Positions 9,830 to 35,064 of a DNA stretch of 64,000 bases are shown in pieces. The stretch's first letter is position 1; each line of letters begins with the position of its first letter. The translations under genes and the position numbers were made by a program. Under the pieces are notes generated by a model. It had not been told where the DNA came from. It ran no database searches and worked only from the letters and a program-made list of their open reading frames with translations. This DNA comes from a virus: positions 1 through 64,000 of IMG/VR virus record IMGVR_UViG_3300042691_028354; one strand, written 5' to 3'.

Positions 9830-11758
9830 GTGGTCAGTATTGATCCCGAGTTTGTAGCTCGCTACGCAGAAAAGAGCGCCCCATGGGGCTTTGGTGGTCT
9901 TGGGGAGGTCGTGTACCTACGCACCTATAGCCGCCGCGTAGAGGGGGAGGATCGCAACGAAACCTGGCCCGAGACCCTTGCTCGCGTAATCAACGGTGCG
10001 ATCGAGATCGGCACACCCTTCACTCAGGACGAGGCGGAGAGGTTGTTTGATCACATGTTCCACCTTCGTGGGTCGGTGAGTGGTCGCGCCTTGTGGCAAC
10101 TCGGTACACCTCTTGTGAGCGAGCTCAACGGAGCGAGTCTCAACAACTGCTTCTTCGTGAACATCGAGTCGATTGAAGACATCGAGTTTCTGTTTGACCA
10201 CCTCATGCTCGGGGGCGGCGTGGGCTTCTCTGTGGAGCGGTCAAAGATCCATGAGTTCCCAAAGGTGAAGGCTGGGGTGAAGATCACCCACGAGCGCACC
10301 AACGATGCCGATCTCATCGTGCCCGACAGCCGAGGTGGCTGGCGTCGCCTGCTCCATGCCGTACTGAAGTCCTACTTCTACACCGGCAAATCGTTCTCCT
10401 ACTCCACCCTTCTCATTCGTGAGTTCGGTGCGCCCCTCAAGACATTCGGCGGAACGGCCTCGGGTCCTGGTGCGTTGATCGACGGCATCGCCGACATCTG
10501 CAAGGTCTTTGAGAACCGTGAAGGCAAGAAGCTCCGTTCGGTCGACGTCCTGGACATCTGCAACATCGTTGGACGCATCGTTGTCTCCGGCTCGAGTCGA
10601 CGCTCTGCCCAGATCGCCATCGGCGACCCAGACGACGTGCTGTTCCTGCGAGCAAAGAACTGGGGGACTGGCAACATCCCCGGTTGGCGAGCGAACTCCA
10701 ACAACTCCATCTACGCCGATGCCTACGACGAGATCATGGGCGAGTTGTGGAAGGGCTACGACGGGTCCGGCGAGCCGTACGGTCTGCTCAATCGTCGGTT
10801 GGCCCGTTCGGTTGGTCGACTCGGAGAGAAGCGCCCTGATCCGTCCATCGAGGGATTCAACCCGTGCGCCGAGATCGGACTTGGCGATGGCGAGTCGTGC
10901 AACCTTGCAACGATCTTCCTGCCCAACATCGAATCACTTGACCAGTTCACCGAACTGAGTCGCTTGCTCTACAAGGTTCAGAAGACGATCACTGGTCTGT
11001 CGTACCCGTATGCGAAGACCAACAAGATCACCTCGAAGAACCGCCGCCTCGGGCAGTCAGTCACCGGCATTCTTCAGTGCAGCGAAGAGCAGTTGTCCTG
11101 GCTCTCACCGTCCTATGAGTACCTGCGCGACTTTGACATTGCGTATTCCGAGGAGAACGACATTCCTCGTTCAATCCGGCTCACCACGGTTCAGCCCTCA
11201 GGAACACTGTCACTGCTTCCCGGAGTGACCCCAGGCATCCACCCTGCCTTCGCCCAGTACTACATCCGTCGGGTTCGCTTTGGTGCTGCCGATCCACTCA
11301 TTGAGTCATGTCGTAAGCGTGGTTACCACGTGATCCCCGACATGGGTCTTGATGGCCGCGAGGATCACACCCGTTGGGTCGTGGAGTTCCCAGCGAAGTC
11401 CCCCGAGGGAGCCGTGCTTGCCGCAGACATGACGGCAGTGGAGCAGTTGGAATGGGTCAAGAAGATGCAGACCGAATGGGCAGACAACGCCGTGTCGGTC
11501 ACCGTCTACTACCGCCCCAACGAACTTGACGAGATCAAGGGCTGGCTCAAGGACAACTATGACCACTCGGTGAAGTCGGTTTCGTTCTTGCTTCACGCAG
11601 ACCACAACTTCCCACTCGCTCCCTACGAGGAGATTGATCAGGACACCTACGACAAGATGGTCGCCAAGATTGACCTGACCATCCCGCTTGTAGGGACGCT
11701 TGATGACAACCTGCTGGACGACCCGTCCTGCACCACTGGGGCCTGCCCGGTTCGATGA
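9830..11758 (+). CDS. nrdJ: Class II (adenosylcobalamin-dependent) ribonucleotide reductase
   Basis: YLRTYSR, NCFF, NPCAEI, QPSGT, C-terminal CTTGACPVR; no small subunit nearby. Confidence 0.93.
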   Translation: MVSIDPEFVARYAEKSAPWGFGGLGEVVYLRTYSRRVEGEDRNETWPETLARVINGAIEIGTPFTQDEAERLFDHMFHLRGSVSGRALWQLGTPLVSELNGASLNNCFFVNIESIEDIEFLFDHLMLGGGVGFSVERSKIHEFPKVKAGVKITHERTNDADLIVPDSRGGWRRLLHAVLKSYFYTGKSFSYSTLLIREFGAPLKTFGGTASGPGALIDGIADICKVFENREGKKLRSVDVLDICNIVGRIVVSGSSRRSAQIAIGDPDDVLFLRAKNWGTGNIPGWRANSNNSIYADAYDEIMGELWKGYDGSGEPYGLLNRRLARSVGRLGEKRPDPSIEGFNPCAEIGLGDGESCNLATIFLPNIESLDQFTELSRLLYKVQKTITGLSYPYAKTNKITSKNRRLGQSVTGILQCSEEQLSWLSPSYEYLRDFDIAYSEENDIPRSIRLTTVQPSGTLSLLPGVTPGIHPAFAQYYIRRVRFGAADPLIESCRKRGYHVIPDMGLDGREDHTRWVVEFPAKSPEGAVLAADMTAVEQLEWVKKMQTEWADNAVSVTVYYRPNELDEIKGWLKDNYDHSVKSVSFLLHADHNFPLAPYEEIDQDTYDKMVAKIDLTIPLVGTLDDNLLDDPSCTTGACPVR

Positions 11759-11763
11759 GATGT

Positions 11764-11790
11764 GGGCGGGGGCTTCGGCTCCCGCCCTTC
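11764..11790. terminator. Hairpin between convergent nrdJ and ART genes
   Basis: GGGCGGGGGC-TTCG-GCTCCCGCCC followed by TTCT. Confidence 0.75.
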
Positions 11791-12687
11791 TCACTTCCTA
11801 AATCGAGCAAGGGCGGTTCGATAAGCGGCGGCTTGTGCTGCTCGAATGACCTTGATGTCCTTGGCTCTAGTGACGAAGCGCTCAGCACCCTTAGGGGGCT
11901 TGGCACCCTTGCGGGTATCAGACTTGAACTCAAGGCTCTCAATGGTGGGCAGGACCTTGGTCTCGGCGTCGTCCTTCACGACGCGCCCGTTGTCGTCAAT
12001 CTCAAACCACTCGTCATTTTGGGCGATGAGACGGACGCGAGCGACGGGAGCGCCATCTTCGCCAGTCATCAGTTCCATAATCTCGTAGGAGGATGGGGGG
12101 AGTAGGAGTTCCGTCTCGCCCTTCACTTTGCTGAACCTATCCCCGAGGTATGCACCCTTTGCACCGGCTGGAACGTCAATCTCAAGACGGGCCAAGCCGG
12201 GCCAGTAATAGCCGCCTGTAAGTGATGTTGATTGGAACCCGAGGTCATTCAGGACATCACCCTCTTCGAGGTTGTCCAAGACGTATGGGTCGATGTATCG
12301 GATGGTCTTCAACGGCTCGGGGATCTCGCTCGCATCAAGAGCCGCTTGGATCTTCTCCACGGGCTCCAGCTTCGGGCCGTTGCGATTCAGGCGCATGGAC
12401 TTGTTGATCATCTCGTAGTCCATGTTTGTGTAGTTCTTCAAGGCATAGAGCTGTTCAGGCTCAAGGCCCTCGCGCCACAACTCCCACTTTTTCCCGTACT
12501 CTTCAGCGGCGTCGTTGTCAGTAAACCGTTTATAGAGATCGTTGGCGGCGTCGACTATCTGTGCCACCGGCACCGGAGTGACGTCACGTCCGCCGCGAGT
12601 CGCGGTGTAGAGGCCGTCCCCGTCTCCATCGCGCTCATCCGACTTCGCCTCAACGACGAAATGCACTCCGAAGAACCGCTCAATCAC
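11791..12687 (-). CDS. ADP-ribosyltransferase, VIP2/C3/Alt-like R-S-E clade
   Basis: ALKNYT...YEMINKSMR, TIRY, GFQSTS, GAKGAY, ETELLLP; N-terminal DGDGDG motif. Confidence 0.85.
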   Translation of the reverse strand: MIERFFGVHFVVEAKSDERDGDGDGLYTATRGGRDVTPVPVAQIVDAANDLYKRFTDNDAAEEYGKKWELWREGLEPEQLYALKNYTNMDYEMINKSMRLNRNGPKLEPVEKIQAALDASEIPEPLKTIRYIDPYVLDNLEEGDVLNDLGFQSTSLTGGYYWPGLARLEIDVPAGAKGAYLGDRFSKVKGETELLLPPSSYEIMELMTGEDGAPVARVRLIAQNDEWFEIDDNGRVVKDDAETKVLPTIESLEFKSDTRKGAKPPKGAERFVTRAKDIKVIRAAQAAAYRTALARFRK

Positions 12688-12757
12688 CCCATCATGCTAC
12701 TTCATGCGCTGACATGAAGACCTGAATCAATGTAGCCTGACAACGTAGACTGTGGTC

Positions 12758-13126
12758 GTGCGCCTTCATGATCTCGCAGCGACTGGAGCACCGAGAGTTC
12801 TCTACGAGGCACTCATGGTCCTCCACCAACGAGGGTGGACGCAGGGCATCACTCGCAACCCCGCTACCGGTGAGGTCGATCTCTTGGGTGCTGTGGCTAT
12901 TGCTGCCGGCGCACCCATCGGGGCAGTGACCGAGCAGCCGGACCTGCTTCAAAGTGTTGTTCCACAGGCCATGCGCCCAGCAGCGTACGTGGCGTGGGAG
13001 GCCCTTGAGTGGTCGGTGGGTGATGATCCACTGTTGTGGCAAGACCAAACGGGACGCACTTTCAAGGAGGTCGCCTCAGCCCTTGTGCGAGCCGCTAACC
13101 GCCTCGAGATCGCTATTCGCCCTTAG
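12758..13126 (+). CDS. Hypothetical protein resembling the DUF6197 family
   Basis: RGWTQG...DLLGA...WQDQTGRT.KEV pattern; leaderless TAGACT. Confidence 0.65.
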   Translation: MRLHDLAATGAPRVLYEALMVLHQRGWTQGITRNPATGEVDLLGAVAIAAGAPIGAVTEQPDLLQSVVPQAMRPAAYVAWEALEWSVGDDPLLWQDQTGRTFKEVASALVRAANRLEIAIRP

Positions 13127-13275
13127 TCCCCACTTGGCCGCAAGCGGCCCCTACAGGCCTTGCGTGAGGCGTCCTTCTTCTTGTCCTTGGCCGTCCAAAC
13201 CTTTGGCATCTCCGCCGGTAGCCAGCGGCCCGGTGCTGATTTCGGGATGGGCTTTCGTTTGGGCTTCTTTGCCAT
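13123..13275 (-). CDS. Small Lys/Arg-rich protein (50 aa, MAKKPKRKPIPK...)
   Basis: Hand translation; AAGGA RBS. Confidence 0.5.
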   Translation of the reverse strand: MAKKPKRKPIPKSAPGRWLPAEMPKVWTAKDKKKDASRKACRGRLRPSGD

Positions 13276-13291
13276 TGGAGGTCCTTACGCG

Positions 13292-13321
13292 AAAAGGCCC
13301 CCCGGTTTCCCGAGGGGCCTT
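13292..13321 (-). terminator. Intrinsic terminator after the major capsid gene
   Basis: Minus strand AAGGCCCCTCGGGAAACCGGGGGGCCTTTT. Confidence 0.85.
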
Positions 13322-13340
13322 GTCACTTACTTCTGTTGAA

Positions 13341-14672
13341 TCAGTCAGGCTGTGCGTCGAAGTCCACGGCCACAAACGACTCGGGGCGCTTGACCGCAAG
13401 AGCAAGACGCTCTTCGGCCAGGACCACGATGGCGTTGCGGACGAAGAAGTCTGCGTGCTGTTCCGAGATACGGATCGAAGCCTGCTCACGGTCGTACAAC
13501 TGAGCACCGGTTCCGAAAGCACCAACGAGGGCGGTGCCTTCGTCGATGGCCGGGGTGTCAACAACCGGCATGCGCCAGATGCGGGGTTCCCCACCGAGTG
13601 CGACGGAGACGGCGACAAGGTACTGACCGTTGGTGTCCTTGGTCAGTTCGATGTCTTCCCAGTCGTTCGGGTGGAGGACAACACCGGTTGGCTCGTAGTA
13701 CGCCAGGAAGGCGAGGGTGGCCGCACGACGAATGGCATCAGCCTTGGTGTCAGCAACTGGCAACGTGTTGCCATCTGACCAGGCGTAGCTCTGAACGCCA
13801 GAGGTGTTCAGGATGCCAAGGAGGTTCTCACCGGTGCCGTCACCGTTGAGGATCTGCTGATCCTCTTGGAGACGAAGGCCGTAGAGAAGTTCGTTGTCGA
13901 TGATCGACCGAAGCTGCGGTTCGTCCGAAAGGACGTTGCGGTGCGCTGCTTCCCAATGGGCAAGCGTGCGAACCGGAGCCTGATGACCTTCAAACACCAT
14001 CGACGACTGCGGCTTGAGGCCGAAGGCGCCGCCCGAACGCTCTGCAACAGTTGAAGCGTTGTTGTTTGCGGTCGTGCCGGGGACGGTGAAGCCGATCATG
14101 CGGAAGTACTCGATGACCGCAGCCGTTGTGGTGCGGGTCGGGAACAGGTCGCGAACACGACGGGTGCGCATCGGCGAGGTGACGATGGCATCGCGTTCAA
14201 TGGTGCCGAACGAGCCGGGGGTGCCGGTCGGGAGCGCCGAGAAGACGTCCTTCTGGCCGTAGCGGCCCGAGGTGAGGTCAGCGCGGTTCACGACGAACGG
14301 CGACGGCATGTTTGCACCGTTGCGTCCACCCTGAAGGCTCTTGAACTCTTCGGAATCGAGGAAAAGCTGGCCGAGGCTCTTCGCACCCATGGAGCGAGCG
14401 AACTCGTGGCCGGCGTCAACCATCGCAGCAACGGACTCGTCAAGAGTCTCGGTGCCCCATTCGGAAACGGACTTCATGGATTCGAGGCCGTCAATGAGGC
14501 TACGAAGTTCCTTGATGTCTCGCATGTTGGAGTCAAACGCAGCCTTTTGGTCTGTGCTGACGTGAACGGTGCCGTCCTCAATCTGGAAGGCATCGGCGAT
14601 GGCCTTGTTGTCGGCCATCTTCTGGTTGAGAGCTCCTTGAAGCTCTCGGAGACGACTTTCGTCGAATGACAT
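13341..14672 (-). CDS. Major capsid protein, HK97 fold with N-terminal delta domain
   Basis: EDQQILNGDGTGENLLGIL, VLHPNDWEDIELTKD.NGQY, AEERLALAVKRPESF; AAGGAG RBS before ATG 14672. Confidence 0.95.
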   Translation of the reverse strand: MSFDESRLRELQGALNQKMADNKAIADAFQIEDGTVHVSTDQKAAFDSNMRDIKELRSLIDGLESMKSVSEWGTETLDESVAAMVDAGHEFARSMGAKSLGQLFLDSEEFKSLQGGRNGANMPSPFVVNRADLTSGRYGQKDVFSALPTGTPGSFGTIERDAIVTSPMRTRRVRDLFPTRTTTAAVIEYFRMIGFTVPGTTANNNASTVAERSGGAFGLKPQSSMVFEGHQAPVRTLAHWEAAHRNVLSDEPQLRSIIDNELLYGLRLQEDQQILNGDGTGENLLGILNTSGVQSYAWSDGNTLPVADTKADAIRRAATLAFLAYYEPTGVVLHPNDWEDIELTKDTNGQYLVAVSVALGGEPRIWRMPVVDTPAIDEGTALVGAFGTGAQLYDREQASIRISEQHADFFVRNAIVVLAEERLALAVKRPESFVAVDFDAQPD

Positions 14673-14857
14673 TTCACACTCCTTCAGTGTGTTGCTGGAA
14701 TGAACCATGACGGTTTGACCCATCGGGCTCAGGTAAGCACCCAGCCACTCGGCGTCACTAAAAGAGTATAAAAGACCATAACCCTCCATCACGGGAAGAG
14801 GGGTCAGGATCTACTTGTGGTGATAGCACCTGACCCAAATAGGTCTAGTGATGAAAC

Positions 14858-17062
14858 TCAGGCGACGGCCGTTTGACCCTCGGGTCTATCGTCCACCTCT
14901 GTCGGCACAGGAGCCTCGGGGAACGGGAAGGGGAGATCGCGAAGACGCAGTCGTGTCGACTTCTTGGGCTTGCGTCCACGTGAGATGCTCAGGTGACTGA
15001 TGGAGCGAGAGCTCCGAGAGAAGTCGGTGCCGTCCTGAACCATGCCGTCAAAGTCGCCGTCTCGGGCAAAGAAGTCGTACCGCTTCACAGCGACCGTCTT
15101 TGCCTTCCATGGGTGACCATCGGGCAATAGGTCATTGTCGCCCACATACCGAGCGTTGTCGGGCTTGCCCTTGGAAAGGATCTCAAGGAAGGCGTTGACC
15201 CGACCCATCGCCCACTGGCCTCGAGCCATGCCCGGTCGATGAGAGCCGGAGAATGCCCCAGCCCCTCGGCGATAAACCGATTTGAGGGTGCGGAGGTTCG
15301 TGCGCTGAGACTCGTCACTGACCTTCTCGTTGTGGGCACGCACCTTCTCGGTCAAAGACGCTTCGGTCGCTTCGCTGATCTCAATCTCAGAGCCACTGCT
15401 TCGGGAGGCGGCGGAGCCAATGGCGTTGCGACGGGAACCTCTGATCTGATCAGAGCGAGGCGCTGGGGTTGCGGCAAGACGGTCCGATCTTGCCTTTCGG
15501 GCTTTGGCGGCCGGGGCGGAGACAAGACCCCCACCAGGCAGTGTGTCAATGCCGGTCACTCCGTATTCGTTCAGTTGCTCCCACACTTCGCGAGCCGCAA
15601 CACGACGGACCCGCTTTCGGGTCCGCTTGGGTCGAGGCATCATCTTGATCGCCTCAAGCAGCGTCTTGGCGCCCATGGTCTCGGGGTCGGGGGGGAGTCG
15701 ATCAGGAAGATCGTCAGCAAGGCGGATCTCGCCACCGTCCTTCAAGATTGAGCGATAGTCGGCCAGCAATGCTTCGTCCACTGGACTGGAAGGCTTGGCC
15801 GCTCCGGTCCCGAGTGCGATCAATCGAGCAGTGAGCTCGTCAGTTGATGCGAACGCTCCTGGGATGAGTTCCTCAAGGGTGGCGTCAGTCTTGGCGGACT
15901 TCTTCTTGGACGCACTGAAGCCCGGGAGGCTTTCTGCGGCGTTGAGTTTGGCCATGGCGAGTTCTCCAGGGGTCATGGGGGGCTTGGTCATCCCGGGGAT
16001 CTTTGAACCGTCCCAGTTGCTTGCCCCACTGGTGGGCGCTGGACTCATGTTCTCGGGCTTCGGTTTGGGTTTGAGGACATCGGCTTTGCGCGTGAAGCGC
16101 TTCCATGCCTTGACGTCGTAGACCCGAAGGGACTTGCCCATCTCTTTGGAGGCAATGAGTTTGGGTGACTTGGTCAGGTCATCGCTGTCGTAGAGGTAGA
16201 ACTCGTCAAACAGGTCGTTCTTCAGCGCCCTCGGGATGATGTCGCTGACCGTGGCGTGGACGTGGAGTAGTTGACTCGTCGGCACCTTCCGGCCGGTCTT
16301 GGCGAACCGTTCCTCGTTGAGTTTGCGAGCCGTCTCAATCTCATTGGTCATGTAGTGAGCGACGATGCGGTGGCCTTCACTGCGGAGGAACTTCACCCTG
16401 TCTTCAAGGGTGGAATAGCGGCCGTCGCCAGTTGTGTCGTAGATGACGTCGGACTGTTCCTTGAGTAGGGCGTCAGTCACCCTGTCGTTGAGGTGCTTGG
16501 ACTCCTCATGGACAAGACTCGCTGCGTCCTTGATGCCTTCGTTGCGCCACTTCCCGTACTCGGGAATCGTGTCCTTGAGTTCGTCCGTGTCGACCTTGAT
16601 GGCCTTGGTCAGTGCGCCTGAGTTCTTCAATACGCCGGCGTCAAGGGCCGAGGACTTACGAGTGGCCGGGCCACCACCGAGAACGAAGACGGTGGGATTG
16701 TCTGACTTGGGCGTGGCCTCCGCCTTGGCGAGGTACTTCTCAACCACGGAGTCGTGGAACTTCTTACGAAGCGGATTCCACCGACCGGTCTGGTCTGTCA
16801 GGGCGTACTTGGTGTTGGTTGGCCGCTCGAGTACGCCGGTAAAGGGCTTGCGCTTCTTGGACGCCTTGAGTTTGGCCCGCTTCAACTTCTTAGGCGGTGC
16901 TGGGGCCTCAAAGGGTGTGTTGTCGTTGATGCGGCCATCGTTGTCGCCGTCAAAGGATGCGCTCACCATCGAGGAGATGGACCGGACGCTGCCGATCGTG
17001 CCGGGTTTGTTGCGCTTGCCAAACCCGAACAGCGTCTTCTCCTGCACCTGGCCCTCGGCCAT
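14858..17062 (-). CDS. Multidomain head-operon protein: zeta-toxin/PezT-like P-loop kinase plus C-terminal 'VYRRGAGAF...HRPG...WAMGRVNAF' domain
   Basis: VFVLGGGPATRKS, DTDELK, VIYDTTG, ERFAKTGRKVP, FDEFYLYD; two DxDxDG motifs. Confidence 0.75.
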   Translation of the reverse strand: MAEGQVQEKTLFGFGKRNKPGTIGSVRSISSMVSASFDGDNDGRINDNTPFEAPAPPKKLKRAKLKASKKRKPFTGVLERPTNTKYALTDQTGRWNPLRKKFHDSVVEKYLAKAEATPKSDNPTVFVLGGGPATRKSSALDAGVLKNSGALTKAIKVDTDELKDTIPEYGKWRNEGIKDAASLVHEESKHLNDRVTDALLKEQSDVIYDTTGDGRYSTLEDRVKFLRSEGHRIVAHYMTNEIETARKLNEERFAKTGRKVPTSQLLHVHATVSDIIPRALKNDLFDEFYLYDSDDLTKSPKLIASKEMGKSLRVYDVKAWKRFTRKADVLKPKPKPENMSPAPTSGASNWDGSKIPGMTKPPMTPGELAMAKLNAAESLPGFSASKKKSAKTDATLEELIPGAFASTDELTARLIALGTGAAKPSSPVDEALLADYRSILKDGGEIRLADDLPDRLPPDPETMGAKTLLEAIKMMPRPKRTRKRVRRVAAREVWEQLNEYGVTGIDTLPGGGLVSAPAAKARKARSDRLAATPAPRSDQIRGSRRNAIGSAASRSSGSEIEISEATEASLTEKVRAHNEKVSDESQRTNLRTLKSVYRRGAGAFSGSHRPGMARGQWAMGRVNAFLEILSKGKPDNARYVGDNDLLPDGHPWKAKTVAVKRYDFFARDGDFDGMVQDGTDFSRSSRSISHLSISRGRKPKKSTRLRLRDLPFPFPEAPVPTEVDDRPEGQTAVA

Positions 17063-17064
17063 GG

Positions 17065-17406
17065 TCAGATGACCTTCTTGGCGCGCGCCTCGAGCAGGTC
17101 GGCCATGATCTTGTCGGCACGTTCTTTGCCCTTGCCCGAGTAGGGAAACACCTCGGAAGCCGAGCCCGTGCCGGTGCCGCCGGCTCGCCCCTCTGCACGC
17201 TCGATCATCTCTTCGATCTCTGCGACGTACTCATCGTCGGAGTAGGCCTTGAACGTGGCCACGATGGAATCGGCCTGACTGGCAGCCATCGTTCGGGGGT
17301 CGCCGGCGGCGGCAAGGCCCTTATCCGTGGCGATGATGATGAGGCGCGGGTCATCATCTTGGATGCCCTTGTTCCACTTGGTATACAGGATTACGGTTGA
17401 CTTCAT
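17065..17406 (-). CDS. Hypothetical protein (candidate antitoxin/immunity)
   Basis: Small ORF coupled between two toxin-domain genes. Confidence 0.65.
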   Translation of the reverse strand: MKSTVILYTKWNKGIQDDDPRLIIIATDKGLAAAGDPRTMAASQADSIVATFKAYSDDEYVAEIEEMIERAEGRAGGTGTGSASEVFPYSGKGKERADKIMADLLEARAKKVI

Positions 17407-17873
17407 TCGTCGTCCTCAAGTCCCCTCAGCAACTTGCTCACGATTTCTTTGACGGTGGCCGTTGGGGGGAGTCCGATAAGTGGTCCATCGCCGTTTTGAA
17501 TCGAACGCACCGTGATCTTCTCGTTGTCGGTGCTGGTCCAGGTCACGCCCGATCCATCCTCCAAAGCCATGACGCGGCCCTTCACTAGGCTGAAGTGTGG
17601 ACGGTCGTCGCCAAACACCATGGTTGGAAGCCCACCAGAAACGGCATTGCCAACCATGAGCATCGCCTGAATGATCGGCTTACCGGCCAAAGCTTCCAAG
17701 CCCTCAACAACAAACGGCCCCCATGCCACATAACCACCTGAGTAGCCAAACTCCACCTGCATTCTCAGTTCGGCGTCCGGCCATGGAGTCGGTGTGGCAT
17801 TCAATGTCGCGTAGTCGGACAGTTTGGCCTTTGACCATTCGGGGAGTTCGTCGTCAATCATCTTCACGGCCAA
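17403..17873 (-). CDS. Hypothetical protein (candidate immunity protein)
   Basis: Starts 2 nt after the stop of the 2154-aa gene. Confidence 0.65.
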   Translation of the reverse strand: MAVKMIDDELPEWSKAKLSDYATLNATPTPWPDAELRMQVEFGYSGGYVAWGPFVVEGLEALAGKPIIQAMLMVGNAVSGGLPTMVFGDDRPHFSLVKGRVMALEDGSGVTWTSTDNEKITVRSIQNGDGPLIGLPPTATVKEIVSKLLRGLEDDE

Positions 17874-17875
17874 TC

Positions 17876-27750: not shown

Positions 27751-30700
27751 TCACGGGTCAAGCAGACGGCCGCGCTCGTCGGTGATTCCACGAATGACGT
27801 CCATCTCACGCTTGGAGTACTCGGACTCAAACACGCTCTGAACTTCCTCGAAGAGGTCCATCATTCGCTCGTAGACTTCATCGCCTCCATCTGGAAGCTC
27901 ATCGGCCCGAAATGCCGCACTCTCCAAGAGGTCGTAGTACTCCTTGGGATCAATGCTGCCCCCACCCAGTCGATCAAGGGCGTCCACCTGGACTTCAAAG
28001 AGTCTCAACTTGGTGGCGTCGTCTACGCCCGAAGCATCCTGAGCATCGACAAGCTTGTCAATCAGCTCAACAACCTTCTTCTCTCGGGTAAAGGGCTTCA
28101 ACTCGAAGGCTTCATCAAGTTGTGACCGAATGTCATCAACGGGGTTGGCCTTGGACGACTTGCGAGACGGTCCACCCATGTCGTCGACATAGCTGTCGTA
28201 GTTCGCCAAGAGTGCCAGTAGGCGACCCTTCATGTTCTGGTACTTGCCCGTATCAAGGAGGTCGCGAATCTCGGACGGACTGAGGTCGTCAAGCACGCTG
28301 GCGTCGATACTCATCTGCTCAAGCAGATTCGCAACATCATCACGAGCCTGAGCGACCGCGCCGACGTACTCCTCGAAGGCGTCCTCGTCGTCTTCTTCCA
28401 CCTCATTGGCAGCCCTCTCGACTGCGTAGAAGTCAAGCGGACCTTCAGCGTTGAGATCTACGTCGTAGTCGTCAAAGAGGTCGGCTGTTTCAGTCTTGAG
28501 GTCGGCCCATTCTTGGTCCACATCGTCGCGAAGTTCGGGCTTGACGAAGTTGGAGGTGATCAAATCGGACAAACCCTTGTTGGTGTCCTTGGGAAGGAGG
28601 CCGTCAGGAGTGTCTCGATAACTGTCCACCAAGGGTTGGATCTGGAACGGGTAGTCAACTGCTCCGCCAACCCCCGAAAGGTTCCCCTTCAAGACGGTGC
28701 CGTCGCCGCCACCGAGCAGCGCACTGAGTTCATCTGCGACATCAGTGGTCGGTGGGTCAACGAAGTAAGTCGTTAGTTCCGGCTTGTCAAGGTTCTTGCC
28801 ATCGCGACGAAGCACGAGAACGTCAAGGTTCCTAGCGCCTCGAGTGGCGGTTACGGCCACAGTTTGTTTATCGCCCGACATGTAGAGACCGTTGCCGACA
28901 TTGATGCGCGAGCGTTCCCTGGCGCGCTCCATGTCAATGATCTCGTTTATGTTCTTGCGTCCCTTGTCTCCATCCTGAGCAAACAGGTCAGCAAGAGCCG
29001 TGTTCACCTTGCCCCGGAGCCTTGAGACTGACTGCTTGTCGTTGGGGTACGGGCTGAACAGTTCCGGCGCCCATGCCTCGTCTTCTGGTGTCAGTTGCTC
29101 AAGGATGCCTGGGAGTTGGTTGTCAATACGATCACGCAGTGTGTCCGTGATGCGACTCCGTGTCGCTGAATCAATGCCTGCTGCCTTCATAGCATCATCG
29201 TATGAATCAATGTCGAAATCCGCAAGGTCTGATAGGCGATCGAATGCTTCATCGTCCGACATGTCGCCATAGAAGGTGCGACCCTGATCGCTAGAGCGCA
29301 TCGAGAATGGCTCAGTCCATGGCTCGCCCGGGTTGAAGACACCTTTGTCGCCACCCATGGCACGGAACTGCATGGAGCCGCCGACGTCAATGCGATGGAT
29401 CTTGTCGTCATCGTCAAGGATGACGTTGTCGCCGACAAGGCCGAAGACATCCCAACTCGAGGCAAGAGCGTCGTAGGCGAAGCCGTCTCGAGCCTGCTCT
29501 TGAAGGGCTTCGGTCATTCCGTCGTCACCGATCGGTTTGCCAAGCCCGCCATCTTTGGTCTGCACGGCCTTCTTGGCGATGTACCACTTGCCGTTGCTCT
29601 CATAGATGCCCGTCTCGTCGGTAGCGAGACCGGCAGTCTTGTAGAAGAGGTGGGCAGACATCTCGTTCTGAGCATGAGCCTCGGACTTCGCCGGCTTGAC
29701 AAGGTATCGCTGACCCTTGTCGTCGGTGTACCAGCGACCACCCTGAGACCCAAGAGGACCCGAGCCTCGCTCCATTGCCTTGAACTCGTCGGCCGACGGA
29801 AGGCCGTTCAGGAGCTTCCCGGCGCGACCAGTCGGTCGCTCGGGGGGTTCTGGGGTATCACCCGCTGGCGGCTTCGGGGGCTTCGGGGGCGTGGGTGGTT
29901 TATTGCTGCCACCTCCGCCAGGTTTGAGCTTTGAGGGTTTCCGGTCATACCAACCCATTTGACGCTTGACGGATTCGGGGAGATCGGATCCAATCGGCTT
30001 CCGAGTTGGGGCTACACGATCAAGATCTGCCGCAGACGGGAGCTTCAATGCGGGCTTGCCGGAATCGCTTGGCTTGCTCGTCACATTGCGCATGGCAGTG
30101 GTTCCCTCTTGAACCACGCCATCACCGTCAGCATCTCGGGCCTTGGGATTGACAGCCTGCTGAATCAACTTTCGAGTGCCGCGACCCTTACCGCCGCCCG
30201 CGCTGGAGTTGCTCAGTTTGCGCAACTTTCCCAGCGCGGACTTACGGTCAAAAGGGACGGCATCACCGTCCTCGGTGCCGTAAAGGTCAAGAGACTTGAC
30301 TCGCAGTTCATCGCCATGGCCGTCGACAAGCGTCGCAACGGCGTCAATCAGTTCCTGGCTGTCTGCCTTGATCGCGATCCACGATCCGTCTGCGGTGTCC
30401 AGTGACACTTCGGCGCCGTGGTATTCGGCGATGGAATCAAGGAGCGACTTCAGTCCGAACATGGCGTCCGGTGTGGTTCCGAGGACAAGGTAATCATCAC
30501 CCTTGCGCTCAAGACCGGTGGAAGCATCTCCCTCATTGAGGATCTCGGTGAGCAGATTGATCGCATCGCGAAGGCGCTCCATGTTGCGCCCGGCGACGGT
30601 TCGGCCGACCTTGACGTCGAGCTGTTCCATGATGTCGTCGTAAGCGACCTTCTTGCCCCGGCGACGTCGTTCGTTTTGGCGAGCGGCAAGCATGTTGCGC

Positions 30701-32478
30701 TGGTTCTGGTACTTGCGAAGTGCTTGGACTCGCTTGCGGTGCTCTGTCGGAACCTCACGCATAGCGTTGGGGTCATCGAACGAGCCGACGGGGTAGCGAC
30801 CACCATCTCTGAGTTCAACAAAGCCCGAGCCGTCTTCTTCAATCCGAGCATGGGTGTCGTACTTGTCAATGCGGTAGCGGCGAGAGCTGTTGTCAATCTC
30901 GCCACGAGGTTTGACGGTTGGCCGTTTAGGCTTCCGCAGTAGGTAGTTTCTGTCCCTTTGCGGCTTTTTGAATGGGGGCTTTGTCGGCTTCTTGGGAGCA
31001 GCAGTCTCGCGATCGGTGCCATCAAAGATGACGCCGTCTCCATCGCGATCGACTTCGTCAACTACAGAGCTGCCGCCGACCCTGCCAGCGATCTGCTTGA
31101 CGCCGCACATGCCCTTGCCGCCACATCCGCATCCACAGTCCTTGTCGCCGGCCATGCCTGCGCCTGGACCGGGAACGTCGGGGGCTTCGGAACCGTATTC
31201 TTCATCGTCCTCATCCTCCACGGGGATGTAGACAGTCTCGGCTCGGACTTCTTCGGCCGAACCGACCATGATGAGGCCGCGTTCGGAATGCCACGATGCC
31301 CGCATTGTCATGGGTTCGCCGTCGTGCATGTGGTCGAACACCACTGTGTTACGACTCATGTCGCGAATCTTGACGGGACCGCCGTACTCCTCGGCAATGG
31401 CGTCGGCAAGGTTTTCGGCCATTGAGACCTGTGGGTCCACTACAAACCCATCGCCGCCTTCGCCGTAGTCTTCGTCGTCCTCTTCGTAGTCCTCGTCGTA
31501 GTCTTTGTCGTCGCCTTCGATTGACACTGCGTATTTGTCGCCATAGCGATCGGCGATGAACTCCATGAGGCCTTCCGCCATCTCCCGCACGGCATCGTCG
31601 CCCTTCTCATTCTTCGCTTCGAGCTTGGCGATTGCCTCGCGAATCACGTCCTTCATGTAGCCCTCGCCGCGGGATCCGACGGCCAGCCACTTCATTTGAG
31701 CGACGACGCCCGGAAGGCGGAAGTCCTGCTTGTGTCGGGCGACCCACGCTTCGCGGAGCTCTAGTGCTGCGACCTCGGTGTCGGTCGTTGCTTTGCCGCC
31801 GCGCTTGGCGATCGGTAGGAGCTTGGCGTACTGGTCGTTTCCTCGGATGTTCCCACCCTTGGCCCAGATCGTCGGATACTTCTCCTTGACCATTTGGGCG
31901 AACTCGGGGTCGAACAGGTTCCACTCGCTCTTGCGGAACGAATCCACCTGATTCTCTTCGTCCTGCATTTCGCTCTTGATCGAGATCGTCGCTGTGAGCT
32001 GATTCGCCCCATGAAGCACCGGGCTGACTTCGTAGAGTTCGAGTTCCTTCAGTAGGTTCGCCTGGCGCTGGGACGAGTAGATCGAGTCGAGGGTCTTGTA
32101 CCCGATTGACCATTCCTGCTCCTCCCCAAAGAACAAGATGTCGTTGAATGCTTCACGGCCACGCTCTGACCGGAGGTTGAACTGAACCTTGGCGAAGAGG
32201 CCACCTACACCGGCCTTCTTCATCTTGGCGGGCAGGCGAGGATCGCTCGCCGGCACCTCGTACATGTCGATGACCTTGCCGATGGGCTTGTTCCAGTCAT
32301 GGCCCCAGACGACACGAGGCTTGCGGCGCTTCAGGCTTGACGTGAAGGCACCCGGCATGACGATGTCGCCGACCGAGTCCTTGTTGCCCACGGCAGCCAC
32401 GAAGCACTCAACGATGCCCATGGCCTCGTCGATGGAAAGTTGGCCACTCATGGCCTTGAACTGGAGTGAATCACCCAT
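27751..32478 (-). CDS. HK97-type prohead protease fused to about 1400 aa of cargo, including a kinase-like domain
   Basis: N-terminal GNKDSVGDIV.PGAF, WGHDWNKPIG, WSIGY, LYEVSPV..GAN; later GSQGG..Y..YLVKP...NE...WDVFG..DN...RIDVGG. Confidence 0.88.
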   Translation of the reverse strand: MGDSLQFKAMSGQLSIDEAMGIVECFVAAVGNKDSVGDIVMPGAFTSSLKRRKPRVVWGHDWNKPIGKVIDMYEVPASDPRLPAKMKKAGVGGLFAKVQFNLRSERGREAFNDILFFGEEQEWSIGYKTLDSIYSSQRQANLLKELELYEVSPVLHGANQLTATISIKSEMQDEENQVDSFRKSEWNLFDPEFAQMVKEKYPTIWAKGGNIRGNDQYAKLLPIAKRGGKATTDTEVAALELREAWVARHKQDFRLPGVVAQMKWLAVGSRGEGYMKDVIREAIAKLEAKNEKGDDAVREMAEGLMEFIADRYGDKYAVSIEGDDKDYDEDYEEDDEDYGEGGDGFVVDPQVSMAENLADAIAEEYGGPVKIRDMSRNTVVFDHMHDGEPMTMRASWHSERGLIMVGSAEEVRAETVYIPVEDEDDEEYGSEAPDVPGPGAGMAGDKDCGCGCGGKGMCGVKQIAGRVGGSSVVDEVDRDGDGVIFDGTDRETAAPKKPTKPPFKKPQRDRNYLLRKPKRPTVKPRGEIDNSSRRYRIDKYDTHARIEEDGSGFVELRDGGRYPVGSFDDPNAMREVPTEHRKRVQALRKYQNQRNMLAARQNERRRRGKKVAYDDIMEQLDVKVGRTVAGRNMERLRDAINLLTEILNEGDASTGLERKGDDYLVLGTTPDAMFGLKSLLDSIAEYHGAEVSLDTADGSWIAIKADSQELIDAVATLVDGHGDELRVKSLDLYGTEDGDAVPFDRKSALGKLRKLSNSSAGGGKGRGTRKLIQQAVNPKARDADGDGVVQEGTTAMRNVTSKPSDSGKPALKLPSAADLDRVAPTRKPIGSDLPESVKRQMGWYDRKPSKLKPGGGGSNKPPTPPKPPKPPAGDTPEPPERPTGRAGKLLNGLPSADEFKAMERGSGPLGSQGGRWYTDDKGQRYLVKPAKSEAHAQNEMSAHLFYKTAGLATDETGIYESNGKWYIAKKAVQTKDGGLGKPIGDDGMTEALQEQARDGFAYDALASSWDVFGLVGDNVILDDDDKIHRIDVGGSMQFRAMGGDKGVFNPGEPWTEPFSMRSSDQGRTFYGDMSDDEAFDRLSDLADFDIDSYDDAMKAAGIDSATRSRITDTLRDRIDNQLPGILEQLTPEDEAWAPELFSPYPNDKQSVSRLRGKVNTALADLFAQDGDKGRKNINEIIDMERARERSRINVGNGLYMSGDKQTVAVTATRGARNLDVLVLRRDGKNLDKPELTTYFVDPPTTDVADELSALLGGGDGTVLKGNLSGVGGAVDYPFQIQPLVDSYRDTPDGLLPKDTNKGLSDLITSNFVKPELRDDVDQEWADLKTETADLFDDYDVDLNAEGPLDFYAVERAANEVEEDDEDAFEEYVGAVAQARDDVANLLEQMSIDASVLDDLSPSEIRDLLDTGKYQNMKGRLLALLANYDSYVDDMGGPSRKSSKANPVDDIRSQLDEAFELKPFTREKKVVELIDKLVDAQDASGVDDATKLRLFEVQVDALDRLGGGSIDPKEYYDLLESAAFRADELPDGGDEVYERMMDLFEEVQSVFESEYSKREMDVIRGITDERGRLLDP

Positions 32479-32587
32479 ACCGAAGGACCTCGCTTTACTT
32501 GAGGTCAAAGAGTAGTAGGCGATGTATACGGAAACGGGAACGACTATACGGATTTACACGTCTTCCCAGTTGAGGGAGTTTCCGTAT

Positions 32588-34870
32588 TTAGGATCGGTAT
32601 CGCAAGCGACAGCGACACGCAAGACTCAATGACGCTGGTGCCATCGGGTCTCCCGGGAAGCGCAGTGGCATCCCGTTCACCTTGAACGACTGGCCCATTT
32701 GCACGGTCGTCCCATCAAGTGAACGGTGGGCGGGTCTCACCCGATCATCGCGACGGGTTACCCATGTCTTTTCAAGGAGGCCCGAGCGTTGACCGGCAAG
32801 ATAGAGGCCACCATTGAAGGCGCTTTGTCCCTCGATCTGAGAGATTCGGTTGCGGCGACCACCAAGGAGTTCCACGAACACCGCAGCCAATCCGGCAAGA
32901 AGGAGGGCATGGCCCGAGTCAACGCCATCGCTTGCCGCAAGAGTCTTGGCGGCGAAGACGGCAGCGGCAATCTTCTCCTGTGTGGTTGAGTTTGCCTGCT
33001 GGACCCGTTGGGCTTGCTGGTCGGCAAGGCCGGTGAACTCCTCATCGCGAGCGATTTCCGTATTTGTCTTCTCTCCTACGAGAGCGGACGCCTCGGCCAT
33101 GATGCCGGCGAGTACGGGAGTTACGTCTTCAGCAGTTTGGCGATTCCAGCCAGGGAGGTCGAAGAGTTGTTCTGTTGTTAGACGACCTTCGGCGATGGCC
33201 TTGCGGGCCTTTGACCCACGGGCCTTCTCCATTACGACGCGCTGCTGGCGCTCATAGAGGCGTTCAAGGGTGCGATCAAGAATCTGCTCCCACCGTTCGG
33301 TAGCCGTGTCGGCCTTGGTCTCGAAGTCTTCGTCAAAGATCGCCTGTTTCAGCGTCTTTAGTTGTGGTGCATCCGCAGGGGGTCGGCGAGCACCGTCTAG
33401 GGATGGTGCGGTCGGGTCATTTTCCTGGGCTGCGGGCGCCATGTCCGCCTCATCGACGATGGTGACACCCTCCGGCAATGGCGGTTCAGCCGAGCCTGCG
33501 TCCGGCGGAGCCGGAGCCTCGGCCGGCGCTTCGGGTGCGACCTCGGAGACGCCCTCGGGGAGTGGCTGCTCAGCCGGAGGAGCCCCAGGGTCGCCCGGCA
33601 TGGCACCCATGGCTTGCTGCTGCGTGGCGGGATCGACGTAGGGCATCTCGCGTTCGGTGTTACCGATCGGTGCGAGGTTCGGGTTGGCCAGCATGGAGTC
33701 GGCAAGGTCGGATTCAACTGGATCTCGGCCGGTCCCTGCTCGGTACTCGTTGGCAGTGATCAGGCCGTTGTTGAACTCCTGAAGGAGATACTGCTCACGC
33801 TCCTGCTTAGCGAGAATGAGAATCGGGACATTGGAGTTGTCAAACTCAAACCAAAGTTTGGGGTCAAGGGGATCAAAGCCTCGAGCCAGCATCTCAAGAT
33901 GCGGCTGCATGGTCTCCATCCAAAACACCCGAAGTTCCTCGGCGGCATTTGAGAAGGTCCGTCCACTGGCATTGCCGATGACTGATTCCGGCACGCCGAA
34001 GGCGGCAAGGATCTCTTCCTTGGTGAGTCGACGCATCTCCACGTAGGCGGCGTCACGAGGATTCGAGCCGGTGTCTACGTAGTCGGCGCCCTCCTCGGAA
34101 GCGATAACGGTGGTGCCACCGGCACGGCCGATGTTGCCTCGGAAGCGGCTTCGGAGTTCTTCTTTGTCCTCTTCGTCCATGTCGCCACGAACAACCAGAA
34201 GGCCACCGGGGCGGCCGTCGTTGACAAGGAAGTTGCGGTTGTAGAACTTGGCCAGATTCTCGATCTCGATGGCCACGCCGGCAGATTCCATGGGGGTCAT
34301 GGACAGGTAGGGATCAAGTGGGTGTGGGTGGCGGAACCAAAGGACCTGCTCGGGCTTGAGGATCGTGCGCTGTCCACTCGGCATCAGCACCTCGTAGCCA
34401 GAGACGAACTTGCGCGGGTCGGGGATCGGACTGGTGTGTTGCGGGGGAAGCAGATGGAGGGCAGTTGGCCTGCCATCACGACCGGAGATGATCTCCACGA
34501 ACGCGCCGCGAGTACTCAGCAACATTTGGGCTGAGAGTCGATGGCGGAAGATGAAACTGTTCTCGCCTGGGTTGGACGCCATGTTGAATAGCTTGAGAAT
34601 GCTGGCGTCATCGACGATGGGGCCGACGGGGGAGTTGTTGTTGCGTGCTCTGACTGGGAGGCGAGCCTGATTGCCGGCGATGGCGTCCACGGCACGGAAC
34701 AGCCATGTGACGCGCTTCATGCCATCGCGATAGGCCCGTTCGATGTCCCACCCGTCGTGGTAGCCGCGATCTATCGCCAGGGACGGATTCGTGGAGACGG
34801 GCGCGCCATAAGGGATGGCCTTTTGGCCGCCATTGCCAATCCCTTTGTTGTTCGGCGTGTTCCAGCCCAT
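32588..34870 (-). CDS. HK97-family portal protein fused to a C-terminal MuF (SPP1 gp7-like) domain
   Basis: FYNRNFLVNDGRPGG, EILAAFGVPESVIG, ITANEYR; C-terminal KTWVTRRDDRVRPAH...LRFPGDP...CRC. Confidence 0.9.
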   Translation of the reverse strand: MGWNTPNNKGIGNGGQKAIPYGAPVSTNPSLAIDRGYHDGWDIERAYRDGMKRVTWLFRAVDAIAGNQARLPVRARNNNSPVGPIVDDASILKLFNMASNPGENSFIFRHRLSAQMLLSTRGAFVEIISGRDGRPTALHLLPPQHTSPIPDPRKFVSGYEVLMPSGQRTILKPEQVLWFRHPHPLDPYLSMTPMESAGVAIEIENLAKFYNRNFLVNDGRPGGLLVVRGDMDEEDKEELRSRFRGNIGRAGGTTVIASEEGADYVDTGSNPRDAAYVEMRRLTKEEILAAFGVPESVIGNASGRTFSNAAEELRVFWMETMQPHLEMLARGFDPLDPKLWFEFDNSNVPILILAKQEREQYLLQEFNNGLITANEYRAGTGRDPVESDLADSMLANPNLAPIGNTEREMPYVDPATQQQAMGAMPGDPGAPPAEQPLPEGVSEVAPEAPAEAPAPPDAGSAEPPLPEGVTIVDEADMAPAAQENDPTAPSLDGARRPPADAPQLKTLKQAIFDEDFETKADTATERWEQILDRTLERLYERQQRVVMEKARGSKARKAIAEGRLTTEQLFDLPGWNRQTAEDVTPVLAGIMAEASALVGEKTNTEIARDEEFTGLADQQAQRVQQANSTTQEKIAAAVFAAKTLAASDGVDSGHALLLAGLAAVFVELLGGRRNRISQIEGQSAFNGGLYLAGQRSGLLEKTWVTRRDDRVRPAHRSLDGTTVQMGQSFKVNGMPLRFPGDPMAPASLSLACRCRLRYRS

Positions 34871-35064
34871 CACTCAGCCCCAAGTAGGTAACCGACGAAT
34901 CCACATGTCACGCCTAGCGTGATCCACCCCGCAGGTGGGTAGATCATGGCAACCCCGACGCTAGTAGTAATGATAAATGTCAGCATGAGGGCGTAGGCCG
35001 CAACCGATCGTAAAGTGATGCTAGCGAACAGCATTGCGCGAAGGTTTGAGAGCAGTTTGGTCAT
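34870..35064 (-). CDS. Small two-TM membrane protein immediately upstream of the portal
   Basis: Hydrophobic; typical position in HK97-like head modules. Confidence 0.75.
   Translation of the reverse strand: MTKLLSNLRAMLFASITLRSVAAYALMLTFIITTSVGVAMIYPPAGWITLGVTCGFVGYLLGAE

Follow-up and report, generated by a model that had tools for sequence, protein, structure and literature searches.

Why should a phage separate its prohead protease gene from its capsid gene and fill the interval with giant reading frames that encode enzymes? The question is raised by a stretch of viral DNA, hereafter the window, that comprises the first 64 kb of the 86,492-bp IMG/VR virus record IMGVR_UViG_3300042691_028354 (CheckV completeness 58%). 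In HK97-type head modules the protease and capsid genes are normally adjacent. Here, one unbroken series of minus-strand genes runs from 34873 down to 13341, and its open reading frames (ORFs) confirm the order given in an earlier note on this DNA: a portal-MuF fusion, a protease fusion, proteins of 647, about 444, 2154, 156, 113 and 734 amino acids (aa), and an HK97-type capsid. The protease-capsid separation on which that note had remarked is likewise borne out, at 17.8 kb against adjacent genes in the cultured phages Cantare and ChisanaKitsune. The note read the interval as effectors that are assembled into the prohead, cut free by the protease and ejected with the DNA. Judging from gene order, domain content and homology, we consider the chance that the giant ‘polyvalent’ proteins of this head operon are mostly packaged in the head to be a little better than even.

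The giant-gene layout is a clade trait. An IMG/VR search with the capsid returned 291 relatives, of which 80, with capsids of 70–82% identity, were analysed as loci. In 46 loci the sequence extends 8 kb or more beyond the capsid gene on its upstream side, and 43 of these carry a same-strand ORF of at least 1000 aa in that stretch; the longest reaches 3224 aa, many being cut at the locus edge, and ORFs of at least 400 aa cover a median of 82.5% of the upstream sequence. The S78 protease domain and the capsid share a strand in all 15 relatives’ contigs checked, with a spacing of 15.6–36.3 kb in 13 contigs and 48 kb in G015 (gene content unexamined); G008 was left out of the spacing, its protease and capsid lying at opposite ends of an incomplete contig. 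Throughout the 16 genomes, window included, the protease lies within an open frame of 474–4740 aa. The longest protease fusion seen is that of G005 (the record of locus L062), where the S78 domain at 53239–53676 falls within a single 4740-aa frame. At three loci (L008, L015 and L066; about 17.4–20.3 kb, minus strand) the portal-MuF gene lies downstream of the capsid on the opposite strand, and the protease-giants-capsid block is intact despite this relocation, as shown for L066 (G013).

The content of the interval turns over within this fixed frame, and the synteny comparison that the earlier note had proposed does recover relatives in which the protease-capsid interval carries varying cargo. 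Two of the related genomes, of 137 kb and with terminal repeats, are complete, and in one complete genome of 137.8 kb about 11,000 codons (33 of 35 kb) separate protease from capsid. The interval of relative G002 holds ORFs of 802, 482, 1721, 217, 690, 2480, 1280 and 3464 aa, and that of G004 ORFs of 1758, 543, 1657, 875, 219, 658, 1747 and 546 aa. A core recurs, consisting of both halves of the 647-aa protein, the 444-aa protein and a DUF5824 segment next to the capsid. The remaining cargo comprises RNase_T, DUF3626, NUDIX, DnaJ, HTH_23 and Zeta domains in G002, DUF3721 and Zeta in G004, and two kinases, Zeta and ADP-ribosyltransferases (ARTs) in the window, with the Zeta domain shifting between proteins of 368 to 3464 aa. 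The 3464-aa protein directly upstream of the G002 capsid (L104; 50402–60793) combines NUDIX, HTH_23, a DnaJ J-domain and Zeta_toxin. Gene order, domain identities, layout conservation and cargo turnover can thus be read from the genomes themselves.

The protease fusion is the strongest sequence-level argument for capsid loading, because a prohead protease must sit inside the shell to act and its fused extension would enter the prohead with it. The fusion described in the earlier note exists, with a length of 1585 aa from a TTG start and the 1575 aa originally given from the first ATG. Its S78 domain is N-terminal and followed by an extension of about 1400 aa; the sequence contains a His in VWGHDW and a Ser in EWSIGY, which we take to be the catalytic residues, as in HK97-type proteases. 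Residues 183–310, just beyond the protease domain, have no Pfam match; their homologues (1e-16 to 1e-25) are free-standing ORFs of roughly 240 aa, situated 1–3 kb downstream of the capsid in seven related loci; DUF6321 occupies the equivalent post-protease place in G002 and G004.

Further along the extension lies a kinase-like domain without a Pfam match. Its AlphaFold model, built from an 11-sequence alignment, has a predicted local distance difference test (pLDDT) of 83.3 and a predicted template modelling score (pTM) of 0.79. Foldseek returned 201 PDB matches at E≤1e-3, the best 44 of which are all kinases or phosphotransferases, including aminoglycoside phosphotransferases, RIO kinases and VPS34; the best match is Helicobacter pylori CtkA (2.6e-5, template modelling (TM) score 0.46–0.49). 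K59, E70, D141, N149 and D162 are unchanged in 11 of 11 aligned sequences. A profile of the family matched 5412 representative clusters at E≤1e-3 and 1932 at E≤1e-30, nearly all members lying within proteins of 1000–7000 aa, some of which carry several copies. Among these, P0002 joins MuF, the kinase-like domain and ADPrib_exo_Tox, P0010 has two ART domains, and P0013 and P0023 end in DRAT-like ARTs. HipA_2 or HipA_C lies below threshold over the domain in three of nine scanned members (P0002, P0020 and P0117). Having no Pfam model at threshold, the family may merit its own definition; found alongside MuF and ART domains, it could represent a widespread, unstudied enzyme of host takeover.

The 2154-aa protein is a mosaic in which an N-terminal CPPG motif, Lys/Pro-rich linkers, a second kinase domain and a C-terminal DarT-like ART domain follow one another. 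A tblastn search against 50,697 phage records gave no match to it, PDB sequence searches with the full-length 1585-, 2154- and 734-aa proteins were unproductive, and the ESM Atlas held no usable match to its residues 230–570. PDB profile searches returned only marginal PI4K or CtkA rows for its kinase and nothing for two other queried domains. The kinase assignment comes from the family: the window copy scores below the cut-off for PF00454 (2e-4; 21.8 against 27.1 bits), and nine of ten family members match PF00454 (best 2.6e-7) and four of ten HipA_2. All ten aligned relatives share K121, E133, D226, N231 and D248. On the alignments and models, then, both kinase domains of the operon keep the features of a protein-kinase-like fold, namely the Lys, the Glu, the catalytic Asp/Asn and the metal-binding Asp.

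The C-terminal 215 residues of the same protein are predicted to have a DarT-like fold. There is no Pfam or PDB sequence match, and the ESM Atlas gave weak leads (clusters at 0.91–0.93, one with Shigella_OspC in 33% of its members). The model (pLDDT 81.6, pTM 0.83) matches DarT in each of the top seven Foldseek rows, at E of about 0.02–0.09. In an all-against-representatives VIA-align comparison, DarT structures lead with Z-scores of 9.4, 9.0, 8.5 and 8.2 over 142–151 aligned residues; ranks 5–11 are other ART folds at 4.1–6.0 (OspC3/CopC about 6, Tpt1 5.7, SopF 5.6), ranks 12–13 are again ART-fold rows at 3.8 and 3.6, and the first non-ART row, at 3.6, stands at rank 14. His37 of the domain is invariant among four distinct sequences.

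Two further enzymes were assigned directly by Pfam. In the 734-aa protein a DxDxDG motif, a Zeta-toxin-like kinase (PF06414, 1e-20; 74.5 bits against a cut-off of 22.3), DUF5824 (PF19141, 5.7e-8) and a second DxDxDG motif succeed one another, and the protein also matches phrog_16619 ‘minor head protein’ (2.5e-38); a literature search on DUF5824 found no papers. The 298-aa ART encoded beyond the capsid matches PF03496 ADPrib_exo_Tox (8.8e-17; 61.5 bits against 23.4) and has a DGDGDG motif near its N-terminus. QSTS and ETE are readable in its sequence, and STS together with ExE we take to be hallmarks of the R-S-E class. The folds of all five enzymatic domains that had been proposed from motifs (two kinases, a zeta-like kinase and two ARTs) are therefore recovered by Pfam or by predicted structures: Zeta and the R-S-ExE ART by Pfam, one kinase by family-wide Pfam matches, and the other kinase and the DarT-like ART by structure.

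The Zeta domain also provides the best indirect support for packaging, by homology to a protein detected in virions. Its closest match in a cultured phage is ORF030 of P-SS2 (35.9% identity, 3e-32), a 1499-aa head-region protein (L120, 10801–15300) with Pfam MuF and Zeta_toxin domains. Sullivan et al. 2009 report an average of 96.5 peptides for ORF030 in purified virions (PMC2784084, Table 2). That table labels it ‘Major capsid protein’, GenBank ‘minor head protein’; no capsid family is found in it by Pfam at E≤0.01. P-SS2 differs from the present phage in that ORF030 is a single protein of a cyanobacterial siphovirus, neither fused to a protease nor surrounded by a series of giant genes, both of which are found here.

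Otherwise unrelated head-region proteins were said in the earlier note to share tags, and two short motifs do recur in this way. A six-frame translation of the whole 86-kb record contains five copies of D-x-D-x-D-G, two in the protease fusion, two in the 734-aa protein and one in the 298-aa ART. Relatives extend it to the consensus [FY]DPNAxDGDxDGx[VI]Q[ED]GTxF[EQ]RP. G002 has one copy, in its protease fusion; G004 has four in head-operon proteins, three of which fit the extended consensus, and one more at 131.4 kb. Among the 150 best representatives of the protease-fusion kinase family, 13 carry 14 copies, against none in 20 shuffles. Across the 80 loci, 21 copies lie upstream of the capsid on the same strand, nine downstream and one on the other strand. 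The window has three copies of the second motif, F[KR]CPPG-x-G-x-C (F[KR]CPPG...G...C), two in the 444-aa protein and one in the 2154-aa protein, and the seven copies in related loci are all upstream of the capsid. Neither motif was seen in the parts of the head regions that were scanned, 28.8 kb in Cantare and 29.4 kb in ChisanaKitsune. As judged from their sequences, both motifs are genuine, lineage-specific and under selection as protein sequence, and their patchy distribution argues that they are not the sole route into the head. That they serve as modular address tags, docking unrelated cargo to the prohead of this clade, is a speculative and on balance unlikely proposal; DxDxDG seems to us to resemble an EF-hand loop, and docking could therefore depend on calcium.

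The remaining proteins of the interval have few recognizable features. The 647-aa protein unites two modules that G002 and G004 encode in separate genes; it gives only weak Pfam matches (PepSY, 0.0023). Its C-terminus bears the conserved motif F..S.MEFE.L, an acidic helix motif in which the gene after the protease, at the usual position of a scaffold gene, also ends in G002 and G004. The protein of about 444 aa carries two CPPG motifs (C-x17-C) and has an identical 444-aa database entry and homologues in 31 of the 80 related loci; its 63 database relatives are all unnamed or ‘hypothetical’. The 156-aa protein, which always follows the giant gene, evolves fast: relatives have an ORF of the same size at the same position with 20–30% identity. 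The 113-aa protein has phmmer or jackhmmer matches in seven loci, each downstream of a 2154-like ORF. A complex prediction for the DarT-like domain with the 156-aa protein scored 0.00 in runs made without controls and weighs neither way on binding.

At the two ends of the operon the assignments are conventional. The portal matches PF04860 Phage_portal (2.8e-50, residues 58–379) and phrog_2662 (3.5e-95); its C-terminus matches the head-morphogenesis family phrog_2468 (9.5e-26, residues 512–759) and, below the cut-off, PF04233 Phage_Mu_F (26.5 against 29.6 bits, residues 699–757). A MuF polymorphic toxin, with MuF at the N-terminus and a toxin at the C-terminus, was considered and rejected: MuF is here fused to the portal without a toxin domain, and the giants have no MuF match. 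The capsid has the HK97 fold (PF05065 Phage_capsid, 8.7e-44; 49.7% identity to the Cantare capsid). Capsids of the clade begin with a delta-like domain and a variable segment, followed by a conserved boundary, usually K|S[LI]G. We take this boundary to resemble the HK97 maturation site, which makes cleavage after the Lys a reasonable guess.

Packaging, cleavage, ejection and host targets are what we infer from these data, in the following sequence. The giants would be made late, along with portal, protease and capsid, and would co-assemble inside the prohead, the protease-fused cargo entering with the protease and other cargo perhaps by way of the short shared motifs or of the conserved 444-aa and 647-aa proteins. 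The S78 protease, which probably cleaves the capsid at the conserved Lys|Ser site, may act on linkers of the cargo as well; cleavage of cargo by this enzyme we put at rather less than an even chance. The cargo would then leave with the DNA at infection, a step for which the chance is close to even but just below it. Once inside, the two protein-kinase-like domains, the zeta-type kinase, the DarT-like ART and the Arg-type ART would modify host targets in the service of takeover or counter-defence, and the J-domain and NUDIX of G002 would suit proteins that refold and act after passage through the tail.

Several observations weigh against loaded, active effectors. The peptides of P-SS2 ORF030 were counted for the whole protein and not mapped to its Zeta part, in the portion of PMC2784084 available. 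In Pseudomonas phage Dolphis, gp117, a giant with kinase and ART domains, sits among nucleotide-metabolism genes, outside the head module. An upstream DxDxDG copy is present in only 15 of 80 loci and the motif is also found downstream of the capsid, so that it is not a universal entry signal. Two of the five predicted active sites in the window have unusual or unmapped residues. The Zeta P-loop is atypical, with the Walker A sequence GGGPATRKS (RKS, not GK[ST]; the Lys and Ser are retained); the nearest relative, L007, has the likewise non-canonical GGGPASRKS, and of the 19 other aligned Zeta relatives 16 have the canonical G-K-[ST], GSGK[ST] being the form found in most; L053 has GK-S, and L022 and L027 have MKST. 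In the DarT-like domain the candidate catalytic Glu, unmapped onto DarT, is Glu in two of four distinct sequences and Gln in the rest. Lastly, a gene on the opposite strand parts the 298-aa ART from the head operon.

Other explanations of the giants share part of this evidence. They might be mainly structural parts of the head, forming an internal core, inner body or scaffold in the manner of phiKZ and SPN3US or of the T7 core, with the enzymes as secondary passengers. A core is indeed kept clade-wide (the 647-aa modules, the 444-aa protein and the DUF5824 segment), a gene with the acidic helix motif stands at the scaffold position in G002 and G004, and SPN3US, according to PMC10052503 and PMC5694885, packages many head proteins that its prohead protease processes. 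Most of the length of the giants, however, is unconserved even at 70–82% capsid identity and their domains move between proteins, which fits arms-race cargo better than architecture, and the capsid has a delta-like N-terminal domain of its own. We regard a mainly structural role as unlikely; it overlaps with the packaging of effectors, both placing the proteins inside the head. An external location, as decorations or fibres that display enzymatic or binding domains on the capsid surface, would agree with genes beside the capsid and with long Lys/Pro-rich linkers. It is very improbable: Pfam scans found no Ig-like, collagen, lectin or depolymerase domains, the prohead protease works inside the shell, and the substrates that kinases, ARTs, NUDIX and J-domains require (ATP, NAD+ and DnaK) are cytoplasmic.

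A different possibility is that the giants are effectors or toxins expressed late and never packaged, which act in the infected cell or on its neighbours after lysis and belong to the head operon for timing only. The 2154-aa protein ends in a toxin-like domain, and the two small genes behind it evolve fast, an arrangement known from toxin-immunity cassettes; toxins linked to MuF in temperate phages are discussed as polymorphic toxins (PMC5576092), and Dolphis gp117 lies away from its head genes. Set against this are the prohead-protease fusions of all 16 genomes checked, difficult to account for unless the proteins enter the prohead, the persistence of the protease-giants-capsid block where the portal has switched strand (L008, L015 and L066), and the recovery of P-SS2 ORF030 from virions (PMC2784084). 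We consider unpackaged effectors rather unlikely and retain packaging in the head as the favoured explanation.

The features of the window are collected in the table below. The ART had been placed just downstream of the capsid; it does lie beyond the capsid, but a plus-strand DUF6197 gene intervenes, and because this opposite-strand gene separates them the ART falls outside the capsid transcription unit. A simple scan of positions 11000–18000 for promoters and terminators gave no more sites than shuffled sequence. The ART gene faces a convergent gene for a class II (B12-dependent) ribonucleotide reductase, whose stop codon ends at 11758; the stop codon of the ART gene occupies 11791–11793.

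Features of the window discussed in the text, with positions given in window coordinates
Feature	Position	Strand	Remarks
Large terminase	35131–36444	+	Terminase_6C 7.5e-12, Terminase_6N 2.9e-8; divergent from portal gene
Portal-MuF	32588–34873	-	761 aa
S78 protease fusion	27751–32508	-	1585 aa from TTG start; 1575 aa from first ATG
S78 protease domain	31963–32424	-	Residues 29–182; PF04586 Peptidase_S78 1.8e-12; phrog_80 5.9e-29
Post-protease segment of fusion	31579–31962	-	Residues 183–310
DxDxDG-type motif copy DADGDGVVQEGT	30100–30135	-	In protease fusion; second copy at 31015–31050
Kinase-like domain of protease fusion	29014–29796	-	Residues about 905–1165; wider delimitation 28969–29871
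647-aa protein	25768–27711	-	Two-module joined protein
Protein of about 444 aa	24399–25730	-	Longer ORF 24399–25895 of 498 aa; true gene about 444 aa
2154-aa mosaic protein	17876–24340	-	Kinase and DarT-like ART
PI3/PI4-kinase / HipA-like kinase domain	19211–20338	-	Residues 1335–1710
DarT-like ADP-ribosyltransferase fold (predicted)	17879–18523	-	Residues 1940–2154 (215 residues)
156-aa small protein	17403–17873	-	Directly after giant gene
113-aa small protein	17065–17406	-	Beside 2154-like giants
734-aa protein	14858–17062	-	Zeta_toxin and DUF5824
Zeta-toxin-like kinase domain	16187–16735	-	In 734-aa protein
DUF5824	15128–15304	-	In 734-aa protein
Capsid	13341–14672	-	443 aa from probable start at 14672; ORF 13341–14792 of 483 aa
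DUF6197 gene	12752–13126	+	1.8e-13; between capsid gene and 298-aa ART
R-S-ExE ADP-ribosyltransferase	11791–12687	-	298 aa
Class II ribonucleotide reductase	9830–11758	+	Converges on ART gene

The phage is large and uncultured, and its host is probably an actinobacterium, because WhiB-family matches occur in G000 (one, at 86360–86482, outside the window), G002 (three) and G004 (two), and because of its nearest cultured relatives. Some capsid relatives (66–74% identity, L110–L114) lie in metagenome-assembled genomes labelled Actinomycetota, Phycisphaerae, Campylobacterota and Verrucomicrobiales. These labels conflict across phyla and binning is therefore unreliable for host assignment; the relatives are probably phage contigs binned with unrelated genomes.

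If the giants are packaged, few tailed phages would invest as heavily in injected proteins as this clade, and the ‘hypothetical’ annotation of giant genes in Gilgamesh, ChisanaKitsune and Cantare would be corrected. Fusions of protease and cargo ranging from 474 to 4740 aa would offer a natural series in which to study the passage of large proteins into and out of an HK97-type head, with the two short motifs as candidate loading signals. Were the motifs confirmed as tags, they and the protease-fused cargo would form a programmable capsid-loading code, one that would let these phages spend as much as one quarter of a 137-kb genome on an exchangeable set of injected proteins.

Among known systems, phage T4 is the familiar precedent: an ART (Alt) and other internal proteins are taken up into the prohead, processed there by its protease and later injected. 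Its cargo consists of small proteins with an N-terminal targeting peptide, handled by a T4-type protease and core; no sequences of this type came to light in the window, where no search aimed at them was made. DarB of phage P1 is very large, and the likeness to the P1 Dar antirestriction system lies in very large enzymes and helper proteins loaded into the head; the domain content differs from that of the present phage, and general Pfam and PHROG scans of the window proteins showed no homology to DarA, DarB or Hdf. According to PMC9024508 and PMC12810830, the loading of Dar proteins follows an order tied to head morphogenesis. Measured against the HK97-type module, the window has the portal, the S78 protease and an HK97-fold capsid with its delta domain, and only the adjacency of protease and capsid is broken.

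Cultured actinophages and their kin show partial likenesses. The nearest are the myoviruses Cantare, of Brevibacterium, and ChisanaKitsune, of Gordonia (capsids 49–50% identical), in which the protease adjoins the capsid and a VIP2-like ART and ORFs of about 1000 aa lie between portal and protease. Streptomyces phage Gilgamesh has a portal-MuF fusion, a 4624-aa hypothetical protein (gp48) and then the capsid, and Actinomycetia phage DSL-LC01 carries, between portal and protease, an ORF of 3289 aa that includes the kinase-like domain seen in the protease fusion. In all four the extra genes precede the protease, and the annotated proteases of the latter phage and the two myoviruses adjoin the capsid, unlike the arrangement in the window; none of the four database records annotates the giant ORFs as cargo.

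The closest published concept is that of polyvalent proteins, which Iyer et al. 2017 (PMC5512222) describe as phage or plasmid polypeptides of 2–15 domains drawn from a range that includes peptidases, ARTs, kinases and a zeta-like kinase fused to MuF. Phages encode about 35% of them, and these are ‘likely to be packaged in the capsid’. In PMC5512222 and PMC9503650, effectors (ART, kinase, zeta and Nudix) fused to or beside MuF, portal or a capsid-processing serine peptidase are predicted to be packaged and injected. The 2154-, 1585- and 734-aa proteins resemble such proteins in combining several unrelated enzyme domains in one polypeptide, and in belonging to a portal-terminase phage with virion genes around them (portal, TerL, protease and capsid). 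The kinase group of PMC5512222 is assigned mainly to (pro)phages of Verrucomicrobia-Chlamydia and Bacteroidetes. We found no paper linking polyvalent proteins to actinophages, in a search that lay outside the supplements of Iyer 2017 and 2022. The assemblin-like peptidase of polyvalent proteins is ‘always’ C-terminal (PMC5512222), whereas the protease here is N-terminal, and several giants filling 15–48 kb between protease and capsid throughout a clade go beyond the published examples, as far as the available text describes them. The interpretation in the earlier note is that of the polyvalent-protein model of Iyer and was largely anticipated in print; the note would have yielded to an earlier description of the arrangement, and in part there is one, head-packaged multidomain effectors having been predicted in 2017 and 2022. 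New here are the N-terminal position of the protease, an interval of 15–35 kb of cargo (up to a quarter of the genome), a layout that extends across at least 291 relatives, and the lineage-specific motifs. The system is a large example of a published idea rather than a new kind of system.

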